Positions 3,202-12,269 of a stretch of DNA of 64,000 nt are shown piece after piece. A program made the translations under genes and the position numbers. The notes beneath the pieces were generated by a model, which saw nothing but the letters and a program-made list of their open reading frames with translations, had not been told where the DNA came from and ran no database searches. Numbering within the stretch: position 1 is the stretch's first letter; each line of letters begins with the position of its first letter. This DNA comes from a virus, in IMG/VR virus record IMGVR_UViG_3300005821_000002, positions 32,487 to 96,486 of that record; one strand, given 5' to 3'.

Positions 3202-3567
3202 TTAGTGTCCTAGATGTGAAGCCACGATGTTTCTTGTGATCTTCTTTATCTCCCACTTGTCCAGTTGTCTCAACAATCTTCTAAGTTTATTCCTTGCCGT
3301 ACGTAAGTGGTCGTAATTACACTGCCACTCTCCAGCAGTCTGCATCACTACTAATCTTGAGTCAGTTAGTATAATTATGTTCATCATTTTATTAATGATA
3401 GCATACTTTACTGCCTCTATCATGATAAGATACTCTGCTAAATTTGACGTACCATATCCAAATACTATTTGTTTATGAACTAATTCATTACCTTCATCAT
3501 CGAATATCTTGAATGAGCCATACGTAATATCCTTACGTTTCCCACCATCCGTTATAAATGTGTACAT
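3202..3567 (-). CDS. RNase HI-like protein
   Basis: TDGG...TSNLAEY...TDSRLVV catalytic D/E/D pattern. Confidence 0.8.
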   Translation of the reverse strand: MYTFITDGGKRKDITYGSFKIFDDEGNELVHKQIVFGYGTSNLAEYLIMIEAVKYAIINKMMNIIILTDSRLVVMQTAGEWQCNYDHLRTARNKLRRLLRQLDKWEIKKITRNIVASHLGH

Positions 3568-3734
3568 TATAATTCATCTTCAATTAGCTCAACAACGTCT
3601 TCTGCTACTTTTAGAAAATCTTCTTGTACTGAGGGGTCTAACATTTCCCACAATACCCACTCATTATAACCTTGGTTAGCCATATCATAATCATAGATAA
3701 CCTCAGCAACTGCTTCTGTTAAATGCTCAAGCAT
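3567..3734 (-). CDS. small acidic hypothetical protein (55 aa, below ORF-track cutoff)
   Basis: MLEHLTEAVAEV...EDEL fills the gap exactly; GGAGG upstream. Confidence 0.5.
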   Translation of the reverse strand: MLEHLTEAVAEVIYDYDMANQGYNEWVLWEMLDPSVQEDFLKVAEDVVELIEDEL

Positions 3735-3735
3735 A

Positions 3736-3933
3736 CTACCCTCCGAGCACGGACTCCAGCTTATCGTTTAGGAATGAAGCCAGAGCTTCCATATTATTTC
3801 TTACATCTGGATGTTCATTATAATCAAAAGTCATATCAATAGCGTCTGCTGATCCTTTGATATAAAAGCGAACACGAATCTTATCAGCAAATAACCAAGC
3901 CTTCTCAACCATATACTTCTCTACTTTAGCCAT
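3736..3933 (-). CDS. hypothetical protein
   Basis: MAKVEKY... overlaps upstream stop. Confidence 0.5.
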   Translation of the reverse strand: MAKVEKYMVEKAWLFADKIRVRFYIKGSADAIDMTFDYNEHPDVRNNMEALASFLNDKLESVLGG

Positions 3934-9064: not shown

Positions 9065-9315
9065 TGGTGGAGATGGGGGGAGTTGAACCCCCGTCCAAAT
9101 AGTCTTGGTTCACATGTTACTGGCGTTCCGTTTACTGTCGGTCAGTCTTACTGGGTGTAACTAGGTGTAGCTTCTACCGCTACTGGGAGACTGAATAAAG
9201 TTTCAGCCAGACTCACTCTGCTAAAGAGTGCTGATGCTAAACTATTATCGTTTGCATTTGTGTTAGGGTGCCAGAATGCTTAGCGTCCTCTATCTGTCGA
9301 AGCCATTTCATCCCC
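9065..9315 (-). ncRNA. ssrA: tmRNA (compact, ~251 nt)
   Basis: 5' GGGGATGAAATGGCTTCGAC; G3-U acceptor pair; 3' GGACGGGGGTTCAACTCCCCCCATCTCCACCA; resume codon GCA AAC GAT (AND...). Confidence 0.93.
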
Positions 9316-9560: not shown

Positions 9561-9568
9561 GTAATACT

Positions 9569-9802
9569 CTATCCAGTTGAACGAACAAATGTAATTACAT
9601 TATCCGGTATATCAGCTGGATGTTCATACGATTTATTAGAGCGTGTGCGGTGAGTGAAAGGGAAGAACCCAGTGTCACTCCTACCGATACTCACTCCTCT
9701 AAACTTACCACCCTGTTGTGGATATGTACCTTCTCCCACATCAAGGTTATCTGGTGCTTTTTCTACTAGTTTTACACCACCAACAAGACTTTCTTCTGTC
9801 AT
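9569..9802 (-). CDS. hypothetical protein
   Basis: Fills gap; YTHRxRSxxY-like motif. Confidence 0.55.
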   Translation of the reverse strand: MTEESLVGGVKLVEKAPDNLDVGEGTYPQQGGKFRGVSIGRSDTGFFPFTHRTRSNKSYEHPADIPDNVITFVRSTG

Positions 9803-9805
9803 ATA

Positions 9806-10015
9806 TCACCAATTCTTCCAGTTACATATACTTTCCCAATGTAATAATCCTCTACGATGAGGGTCTCTCCAAGCACGACGACGAGCTTTACTCAAACGTC
9901 GTTTGTAGTAACGACCCTCTCCTCTACTACCCCATCTACAACAAATGCTTCCATTTACTACTTGAATTTTCTTACCAAACTCTTTCCATGTTCTACGGTA
10001 ATTCTCTTTATGCAT
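9806..10015 (-). CDS. small Arg/Lys/Trp-rich protein (69 aa)
   Basis: Start moved to ATG at 10015, directly after the RNase P RNA 3' end. Confidence 0.55.
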   Translation of the reverse strand: MHKENYRRTWKEFGKKIQVVNGSICCRWGSRGEGRYYKRRLSKARRRAWRDPHRRGLLHWESICNWKNW

Positions 10016-10210
10016 GACAACTCCGTAACCAGGATTCTGTTTTATCCCTACATCCATCTATGCCACAACCACACCCTTAGCCCTGCTCACCAGCTAGGTA
10101 AATTTGTGTTGCTCCCTCGGTAGTATAACGGGTTTCCCCTTCCACCTTAAGCAGAGGAGTCCTGAGTTTCCTCTGACGGCATGAAGCCATCAGCGTAGGG
10201 TCAAGTTGTC
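10016..10210 (-). ncRNA. rnpB: miniature RNase P RNA (catalytic domain, S-domain largely deleted)
   Basis: CR-I-like GAGGAAACTCAGGACTCC, GGAGCAA, CR-IV-like TAGATGGAT, CR-V-like AACAGAATCCTGGTTA; P1-P7 and P15-P17 pairable. Confidence 0.88.
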
Positions 10211-10211
10211 A

Positions 10212-10286
10212 TGGAGGCAAGAGTGGGAATCGAACCCACCACTCGACGTTTTGCAGACGCCACCCTAACCAATCGGGATTCTCGCC
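10212..10286 (-). tRNA. tRNA-Cys(GCA)
   Basis: GGCGT-CTGCAAA-ACGTC; U73; CCA. Confidence 0.92.
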
Positions 10287-10952
10287 CTATTCAAAGTACG
10301 GTAGCCAATAATATAATACTTTATCAGCATATACAGGCCCACCAAAGTATAAACAAACATCGGCATTCAAGCTTGTCCAACCACAATTGTATGCAGCTAA
10401 AGCTCTGTGCATATCCTTCTCAGGATTTTCTTCTTCATTGTTAATGTTAGCATTTAACATATACATGCCCTGCCAAATATTCCATCTTGGTTGCCAAAGA
10501 TATTCTTCTGCCAGTGTCCACGGCTTCACAGCTATCTGCATAAGACCGATGGTACTATACCCATCATCCGACATCTCATTTGGGTTGCAAGCACTTTCCT
10601 GAGCCATAACAGCAAGTACAATATTAGGATCAATGGGAAACTCATCATACCACCCTTCAACAAGGGGTCGATAATATTCACATAACCTTACTACAATTTC
10701 AGCTGTTACTTCTTCTCCGGTTGGTCGTGGAGTTGATGTTTTACTCGGCACAACCGTTGGTACTTTTTCTGGTGTTGGTATTGATAGTGGTTCTACTATT
10801 CGCGGCGGATACTCTGTTGAAGTTACCACCGGTGTCGGAGTTATTGTGGGAAGTTCAGGTTCAGGTATATCATTAGGTATACTATATATCCCACACATAA
10901 CGCTGATTACTAGCATAACCACAAGAAAATTCTTGCTAGATGATTTCAGCAA
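10287..10952 (-). CDS. membrane-anchored lytic transglycosylase (SLT domain)
   Basis: N-terminal TM, Pro/Thr linker, AVMAQES, GLMQI, ALAAYNCG. Confidence 0.9.
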   Translation of the reverse strand: MLKSSSKNFLVVMLVISVMCGIYSIPNDIPEPELPTITPTPVVTSTEYPPRIVEPLSIPTPEKVPTVVPSKTSTPRPTGEEVTAEIVVRLCEYYRPLVEGWYDEFPIDPNIVLAVMAQESACNPNEMSDDGYSTIGLMQIAVKPWTLAEEYLWQPRWNIWQGMYMLNANINNEEENPEKDMHRALAAYNCGWTSLNADVCLYFGGPVYADKVLYYWLPYFE

Positions 10953-12240: not shown

Positions 12241-12269
12241 ATTATACCACAAAATCTACACTTTGTCAA
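12241..12269 (-). promoter_or_regulatory. consensus sigma70 promoter heading the tRNA array
   Basis: TTGACA-17-TATAAT with TG extension. Confidence 0.9.

Follow-up and report, generated by a model that had tools for sequence, protein, structure and literature searches.

The 64,000-nucleotide (nt) stretch of virus DNA analysed here (the window; bases 32487-96486 of the IMG/VR record IMGVR_UViG_3300005821_000002) harbors on its minus strand a 195-nt gene that, to judge from its sequence, is a homologue of the bacterial type-A ribonuclease P (RNase P) RNA and comprises the helices P1-P6 and P15-P17, the conserved regions CR-I, CR-IV and CR-V and a specificity-domain stub of about 28 nt. RNase P RNA belongs to the few universal ribozymes; its bacterial representatives measure about 350-400 nt, and what is known of the minimal functional form comes to date from deletions made in the laboratory and from a single archaeal lineage, type T. 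As read from the alignments, the product of the new gene is a naturally minimised, virus-borne form of the bacterial type-A RNA, which is like the archaeal type T in layout, not in sequence-model membership. An earlier sequence-only reading of the window had proposed an RNase P RNA with an intact catalytic core, and this identity is borne out by the matches to covariance models, the presence of CR-I, CR-IV and CR-V, the covarying helices P4 and P6 and the occurrence of homologues in transfer RNA (tRNA) arrays of phages. On these comparative grounds we regard it as secure that the gene is homologous to those of RNase P RNA and that the fold of the catalytic domain is under selection.

Matches to RNase P RNA models

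The bacterial model RNaseP_bact_a (RF00010) aligns to the gene end to end (model positions 1-367; 58.9 bits, E 7e-19), and the archaeal model RNaseP_arch (RF00373) is matched over its whole length (52.8 bits, E 3e-14). The Rfam model search that the sequence-only reading had suggested thus gave a divided result: the bact_a and arch matches are significant but sub-gathering, whereas the RNaseP_bact_b model was not matched and RNaseP-T (RF02357) gave no match at E-values up to 10. With the gathering thresholds in force, Rfam reports only tRNAs and the transfer-messenger RNA (tmRNA) in the window. CR-I, CR-IV and CR-V (GAGGAAACUC, AGAUGGAUG, ACAGAAUCC) and the joining segment J5/15 align to the model consensus. 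The class A traits that are present comprise CR-I/IV/V, a P4 with its bulged U, the P6 pseudoknot and a P15-P17 arm with GGU; those that are absent are P8-P14 with the interleaved T-loops of CR-II/CR-III, and P18. Two members of the family described below (L009 and L023) reach 118-136 bits with RF00010, which is above its gathering threshold of 100 bits.

Structure of the 195-nt RNA

The sequence quoted for 10016-10210 (minus) in the sequence-only reading is correct, and every pairing in the helices that it proposed is canonical on a base-by-base check. The Rfam alignment permits 10014-10212 as gene ends, with two additional base pairs (bp) in P1. The RNA is composed of the following elements (window coordinates):

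10016-10210, minus strand: miniature RNase P RNA gene, 195 nt (matches to RF00010 and RF00373; helices checked pair by pair)
10210-10203 with 10023-10016, minus strand: P1, 8 bp, 5' strand GACAACUU (8 of 8 pairs covary, 97% of cells paired; also found by RNAalifold)
10200-10194 with 10052-10046, minus strand: P2, 7 bp (5 of 7 pairs covary, 99% paired; also found by RNAalifold)
10193-10173, minus strand: P3 hairpin, 8 bp, loop UUCAU (length differs among family members)
10160-10173, minus strand: CR-I GAGGAAACUCAGGA, which contains the 5' strand of P4 (aligned to the CR-I consensus)
10168-10160 with 10034-10027, minus strand: P4, 8 bp, with U10165 bulged, 3' strand UCCUGGUU (covariation)
10159-10156 with 10115-10112, minus strand: P5, 4 bp, CUCC/GGAG, followed by J5/15 CAA at 10111-10109
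10154-10148 with 10089-10083, minus strand: P6 pseudoknot, 7-8 bp, CUGCUUA/UGAGCAG, the latter strand in the P17 loop (covariation)
10119-10146, minus strand: specificity-domain stub, 28 nt, made up of P7, a hairpin and a 3' internal-loop motif
10146-10142 with 10123-10119, minus strand: P7, 5 bp (5 of 5 pairs covary)
10139-10130, minus strand: GGG-GAAA-CCC hairpin, 3 bp (2 of 3 pairs covary)
10129-10124, minus strand: conserved 3' internal-loop motif of the stub, G-UUAUA (UURNA motif in the 14-member alignment)
10064-10108, minus strand: P15-P16-P17 arm (P15, P16 and P17 all covary; family alignment)
10108-10106 with 10066-10064, minus strand: P15 (family alignment)
10099-10073, minus strand: P16/17 (family alignment)
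10072-10067, minus strand: J16/15 GUGGUU with the conserved GGU at 10070-10068 (family alignment)
10051-10063, minus strand: CR-IV GCAUAGAUGGAUG, directly after P15 (kept in members retrieved without requiring CR-IV)
10035-10045, minus strand: J2/4 with CR-V AUAAAACAGAA (aligned to the model consensus ACAGAA)

The register of P15 and GGU in the sequence-only reading needs a small correction: the 3' strand of P15, which had been placed at the first GUG, is shifted by the family comparison to the second GUG (10066-10064). P18 is absent, as had been claimed, because GCAUAGAUG directly follows the 3' strand of P15 and no helix intervenes between P15 and CR-IV. The reduction of the specificity domain to P7 plus one GAAA-capped hairpin is likewise confirmed and leaves 28 nt. 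The UUAUA motif of the stub (10128-10124) may represent a single T-loop, as suggested by its position and its U...A signature, which resemble those of the type T stub. A K-turn in the internal loop of the stub was considered and rejected, since the bulged strand reads R-N-A where G-A is needed. The minimum free energy of the RNA is mildly unusual when taken alone (z = -2.2).

A family of miniature RNase P RNAs in phage tRNA arrays

Homologues were retrieved from IMG/VR, JGI metagenomes and species-representative genomes with DNA patterns that combine the conserved single-stranded core with the short spacing from CR-I to CR-V of the miniature form, and a covariance model (R1) was built from the window sequence alone and the drawn structure, without P4 and P6. 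About 20 homologues of 150-260 nt are present in other phage and metagenome contigs; with R1, 13 homologues of 183-207 nt score 29.6-129 bits and seven of about 150 nt, all located on phage contigs (L047-L053), score 44-61 bits. The contigs that carry the RNA are 1.5-416 kb long, the matched RNAs have a G+C content of 33-55%, and two other carrier records (184 and 329 kb) are complete genomes with terminal repeats. Same-strand tRNA genes are found near almost every copy, often at a distance of a few nt, and arrays of up to 34 tRNAs contain one copy of the RNA each.

The sequence-only reading had called for a covariation check of P4 and P6 among homologues, and both helices covary across 14 members of the family. 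In the alignment of these 14 sequences (A5), 96.5% of the 752 pair cells hold standard pairs, compared with 68% for shuffled 3' partners and 32-45% if the partner is slid by 1-3 columns, and changes on both sides are seen in 48 of the 60 pairs. P4 is 98.2% paired with three covarying pairs (e.g. C-G/G-C at the third pair and A-U/G-C/C-G at the fifth and last pairs), and P6 is 92.4% paired with five, although neither helix was part of R1. Examined sequence by sequence, P6 forms 6-9 bp in 12 of the 14 members from unrelated sequences (CUGCUUA/UGAGCAG here, UAAGAGA/UCUCUUA in L026). A model-free check, in which 11 members were aligned with MAFFT and folded with RNAalifold, again gives P1, P2, P5, P7 and P16/17, and 26 of the 36 predicted pairs covary. 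The GGU in J16/15 is kept across the family.

One phage copy, L005, is 325 nt long and scores 209 bits. Like the RNA of the window it has a type-A core and resides in a phage tRNA array, but it retains much of the specificity domain and passes the Rfam gathering threshold. The presence of a partial specificity domain suggests that a bacterial rnpB gene was captured and subsequently reduced, and L005 is possibly an intermediate in this reduction. A blastn search with the RNA against 50,697 GenBank phage records returned no match, and no copy was found in the relatives identified by their large terminase (L012-L016, 67-84% identity), which are all fragments, the most complete one ending inside its tRNA array, so that the missing match carries no weight for or against a copy in these phages. 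The first DNA pattern, which did not fit the 3' strand of the window's own P4, yielded chance matches (L003, L004, L010) and full-size RNase P genes that are probably host-derived (L006, L008); L025 was also a chance pattern match.

Individual members show further variation. The RNA of L028 (488-670, minus strand) is devoid of P7, so that its specificity domain consists of a single GAAA hairpin inside P5, and an extra CUCC-GAAA-GGAG hairpin is inserted in J2/4 just before ACAGAA. The 87.6-kb phage contig L027 contains a close relative of the RNA and a tRNA with the anticodon CUA (3246-3318, minus strand), a TAG suppressor labelled Pyl by ARAGORN, which hints at stop-codon recoding. On the metagenome contig L022 the tRNA genes form a very dense array and the family member has a long P1 and a long P3; YrlA (34 bits) is matched once and tmRNA twice on this contig, in all cases below threshold (positions 485-553, 3682-3754 and 9564-9638).

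Placement in the tRNA operon

The record from which the window is taken is a virus genome of 96,486 bp with direct terminal repeats that is rated complete, and the genes of the window include those for the large terminase, the portal protein, a DNA polymerase of family A and a helicase of the DnaB type. The RNA gene block of 27 tRNA genes and the tmRNA is located on the minus strand at 12230-5702 of the window (ARAGORN, Rfam). It is split by three perfect TTGACA-17-TATAAT promoters with TG on the same strand (12269-12241, 9037-9009 and 5669-5641), and a terminator-like hairpin is found after the last tRNA at 5700-5675. The features of the block that bear on the RNA are:

12241-12269, minus strand: sigma-70 promoter, the likely start of the RNA's transcription unit (12 of 12 hexamer matches, 17-nt spacer, TG extension)
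10212-10286, minus strand: tRNA-Cys(GCA) with encoded CCA (ARAGORN and Rfam)
9065-9315, minus strand: compact tmRNA, 251 nt (Rfam, 77.8 bits; the match skips long sections of the model)

The RNA had been described as lying 1 nt behind tRNA-Cys and as part of the tRNA operon. Both statements hold: the CCA of tRNA-Cys ends at 10212, a single U precedes P1, and the gene is located within the tRNA block downstream of a perfect sigma-70 consensus promoter. The perfect promoters indicate that the transcription unit is probably read by the sigma-70 polymerase of a bacterial host, and together with the better fit of the RNA to the bacterial than to the archaeal model they argue for such a host.

All 27 tRNA genes encode N73-C-C, and the following base is U, not A, in 23 of them; CCA is encoded only by the genes for tRNA-His, tRNA-Cys, tRNA-Leu(UAA) and tRNA-Lys(CUU). 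A CCA-adding enzyme was not found in the complete phage genome. The spacers between the tRNAs often measure 2-5 nt (e.g. UAA), and U or A predominates at position -1. The tmRNA, which was missed by ARAGORN, begins 2 nt past tRNA-Arg(ACG). DNA of the phage is present in marine-sediment and subsurface metagenome runs of three studies, some of which may be the source of the record, and contigs from two of the three span the locus unchanged.

Comparison with known RNase P RNAs

The M1 RNA of Escherichia coli (rnpB; RF00010) belongs to the best-scoring model and shares with the phage RNA the same catalytic plan, i.e. P1-P5, a P4 with bulged U and a P6 that extends to the P17 loop; the P15-P16 internal loop with GGU and CR-I/IV/V are also common to both. 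In type-A RNase P RNA the GGU pairs with C74-C75 of the tRNA, which is established for G292/G293 of E. coli. The phage RNA differs from the bacterial type-A RNAs in its length of about 195 nt, in the absence of P8-P14, CR-II/CR-III and P18, and in its viral location in a tRNA operon of a genome without rnpA.

The partners of type T in archaea are the archaeal proteins Pop5, Rpp30, Rpp29 and L7Ae. The natural type T RNAs are functional with a hairpin-like remnant of the specificity domain, and in the published model their stub contains one T-loop, which is placed between P7 and the terminal hairpin (PMC13462272). Both the phage RNA and type T are natural RNAs of about 200 nt with a type-A-like catalytic domain, a P6/P15-17 pseudoknot and a specificity domain that is reduced to about one stem. 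Even the layout of the stub is the same, with the conserved UURNA motif of the phage family at the place of the T-loop. However, the phage RNA is not matched by RF02357 and uses perfect bacterial sigma-70 promoters, and the two reductions are almost certainly independent.

A third point of reference is provided by engineered RNAs. A type-A catalytic domain without specificity domain and P18 cleaves substrates in vitro both by itself and together with the C5 protein (PMC5839562). The constructs Eco CP RPR and Pfu C-domain resemble the phage RNA in that the specificity domain is gone and P18 is dispensable; they cleave in trans and need a P6-type interaction (PMC5839562). These RNAs are laboratory-made and less efficient, whereas the phage RNA is natural and selected and possesses a genuine P6 as well as a small stub with P7. 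The only earlier virus-encoded RNA likened to RNase P RNA that we found in a literature search is that of camelpox virus (PMC3001073); its likeness is one of loose secondary structure only, it stems from a eukaryotic virus and it has no linkage to tRNA genes. A description of a phage-encoded RNase P RNA was not found in full-text searches, whose coverage leaves out most subscription journals.

Proposed function and alternative explanations

We consider it likely that the RNA is an active trans-acting ribozyme that matures the phage's own pre-tRNAs, probably together with the RnpA protein of the host. This reading is founded on the joint conservation of all catalytic and acceptor-end-binding elements, the linkage to tRNA arrays and the published activity of catalytic-domain-only constructs and of type T. 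With respect to transcription, protein partner, catalysis and substrates we infer the following course. The sigma-70 RNA polymerase of the host would transcribe the RNA together with the 27 phage tRNAs and the tmRNA, and 3'-end processing of the adjacent tRNA-Cys would free its 5' end. The RNA would then fold into a core with the double pseudoknot of P4 and P6 and, probably bound to host RnpA, cleave the 5' leaders of phage pre-tRNAs in trans. Substrates would be bound via the acceptor stem, the -1 nucleotide and the contact of the GGU in J16/15 with C74-C75, and a heavier dependence on the latter is expected since a domain that reads the tRNA elbow is missing. The pay-off for the phage would be extra RNase P capacity under its own control for a dense and highly transcribed tRNA operon, independent of the host's supply of rnpB. 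RnpA (PF00825) is encoded neither in the complete phage genome nor in the 10 other carrier records, two of which are complete, so any protein partner would be that of the host or of another kind.

Several observations weigh against an active ribozyme or temper the evidence for it. Both Rfam scores lie under the gathering thresholds (100 bits for the bacterial and 84 bits for the archaeal model), because about 170 model positions corresponding to the specificity domain and P18 are missing. That RnpA acts as the partner is an assumption. The stretch with the RNA gene was contained in none of the runs registered as RNA, and the two runs that are labelled metatranscriptomic (X8 and X9) yielded scattered contigs of low depth from coding and non-coding regions alike, which is probably indicative of DNA. 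Nested helices were counted on a model-fitted alignment and lean to the model, a bias from which P4, P6 and the MAFFT/RNAalifold check are free; similarly, the invariance of CR-I and CR-V is partly forced by the search patterns, whereas that of CR-IV, GGU, J5/15 and the helices is not. Moreover, removal of the specificity domain lowers the activity of engineered RNAs (PMC5839562), and the RNase P-like RNA of camelpox virus did not cleave pre-tRNA in vitro (PMC3001073).

The last two findings also lend themselves to a different explanation, namely that the RNA is a non-catalytic decoy, which binds but does not cleave and titrates host RnpA or pre-tRNAs in order to shut down or re-tune tRNA maturation of the host. 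Loss of the specificity domain weakens catalysis (PMC5839562), the camelpox RNA is expressed but inactive, with a decoy role under discussion (PMC3001073), and any protein bound by the RNA of a phage without rnpA would be the host's. Nevertheless, the bulged U of P4, the A-rich J3/4, ACAGAA in J2/4, P6 and GGU are all kept across a divergent family, and a decoy would not need the whole set together. The gene is furthermore located inside tRNA arrays, and sequestration of RnpA would harm the phage's own 27 tRNAs, which makes the decoy unlikely.

Tethering would be a way to offset the weak substrate binding of an RNA without specificity domain, and the RNA may in this case be a cis-acting module that cuts the neighbouring tRNA on its own transcript rather than a diffusible enzyme. 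A distance of only 1-10 nt between the RNA and a downstream tRNA in L024, L026, L029, L032, L033 and L035 is in accordance with this scenario. It fits the window poorly because no tRNA follows the RNA, whose downstream neighbour is an open reading frame (ORF), the next tRNA being 455 nt away. There is no adjacent tRNA in L027 either, and arrays with as many as 34 tRNAs contain a single copy; we therefore regard a cis-acting module as improbable.

The loss of the domain that selects the tRNA elbow could also mean that the ribozyme has been retargeted, with the tmRNA precursor, structured spacer RNAs of the operon or host RNAs instead of tRNAs as its main substrates, and the operon indeed comprises the tmRNA and several structured spacers. 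Yet the combination of GGU with N73-CC on 27 of 27 tRNAs and the family-wide linkage to tRNA arrays indicate tRNAs as substrates, and retargeting appears rather doubtful. That the gene is a decaying, functionless relic of a captured host rnpB, as the 325-nt copy L005 with its fit to capture and subsequent deletion might suggest, is very improbable and contradicted by covariation, considering the compensatory changes in every helix across contigs of 33-55% G+C and the purifying selection that shows in the conservation of motifs in the single-stranded core and in the recurrence of two size classes, about 150 and about 195 nt.

Returning to the active trans-acting ribozyme, we lean towards its extension to the whole family: tailed phages with large tRNA arrays may possess a family of RNase P ribozymes of their own, which are natural, act in trans and measure about 150-200 nt and in which the elbow-reading domain is replaced by GGU/C74-C75 contacts and perhaps by one T-loop in the stub. 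If so, no RNase P RNAs of the bacterial type would be smaller, a catalytic RNase P would for the first time have been traced to viruses, the maturation of phage tRNAs would be independent of host rnpB, and tRNA 5' maturation would join the translation functions that are brought along by phages. The family shows which parts are treated as dispensable by evolution (P18, P8-P14), and its compactness recommends it as a scaffold in structural studies and in guide-sequence tools of the M1GS type. It raises the questions how a substrate is measured without a specificity domain and which protein, if any, is recruited by the RNA. It also exposes an annotation gap, in that the RNA is missed by Rfam gathering cut-offs and overwritten by ORF callers.

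Possible short RNase P RNAs in cellular genomes

The pattern with miniature spacing matched six places in the genomes of 185,579 species, and only one of them is a clear family member. It is an extra copy on a 1.5-kb contig with 13 tRNA genes from a metagenome-assembled genome (G009, flagged unpublished) that also harbors its own full-size RNase P RNA. Three of the places were discarded: a full-size RNase P gene of Roseovarius with an internal chance match, a short copy that holds a run of N and thus an assembly gap (L040), and a site where neither R1 nor any RNase P family was matched and which is probably due to chance (L039). The short RNase P-like RNAs of L038 (3486-3713, minus strand; 228 nt, 41 bits) and L041 (3384-3593, plus strand; 210 nt, 104 bits) are each the only RF00010 match of their genome. 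Both genomes are incomplete and metagenome-assembled, i.e. a gammaproteobacterium of 0.8 Mb and a Tectomicrobia bin, and the RNAs adjoin housekeeping genes, namely those for a class I tRNA synthetase of the Trp/Tyr type and RNase J in the former and rpoD in the latter. They may represent cellular RNase P RNAs that have undergone reduction, or else errors of assembly.

Neighbouring protein-coding genes

The sequence-only reading had ascribed the masking of the RNA in the ORF annotation to a spurious extension. The called ORF of 83 amino acids (aa), which starts at 10057 and covers 9806-10057, does overlap the last 42 nt at the 3' end of the RNA, and a shorter frame is embedded in it:

9806-10015, minus strand: downstream ORF of 69 aa, very basic, with an ATG at 10015 that abuts the end of P1

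The Shine-Dalgarno sequence GGAG, 5 bases upstream of this ATG, is located in the 3' strand of P1. It is plausible from this arrangement that ATG 10015 is the true start, and the position of GGAG within P1 implies that folding or excision of the RNA might affect translation of the ORF. The 69-aa product was assigned to no Pfam or PHROG family, and the Atlas gives only clusters of 'hypothetical viral protein'. A role as a conserved protein cofactor was rejected, as no homologue is found beside the RNA in 15 other loci. A second protein-coding gene of the tRNA operon (10287-10952, minus strand) is located between tRNA-Leu(CAA) and tRNA-Cys and encodes a protein of 221 aa that starts with a hydrophobic segment in its N-terminal part and has an SLT lytic-transglycosylase domain in its C-terminal part.

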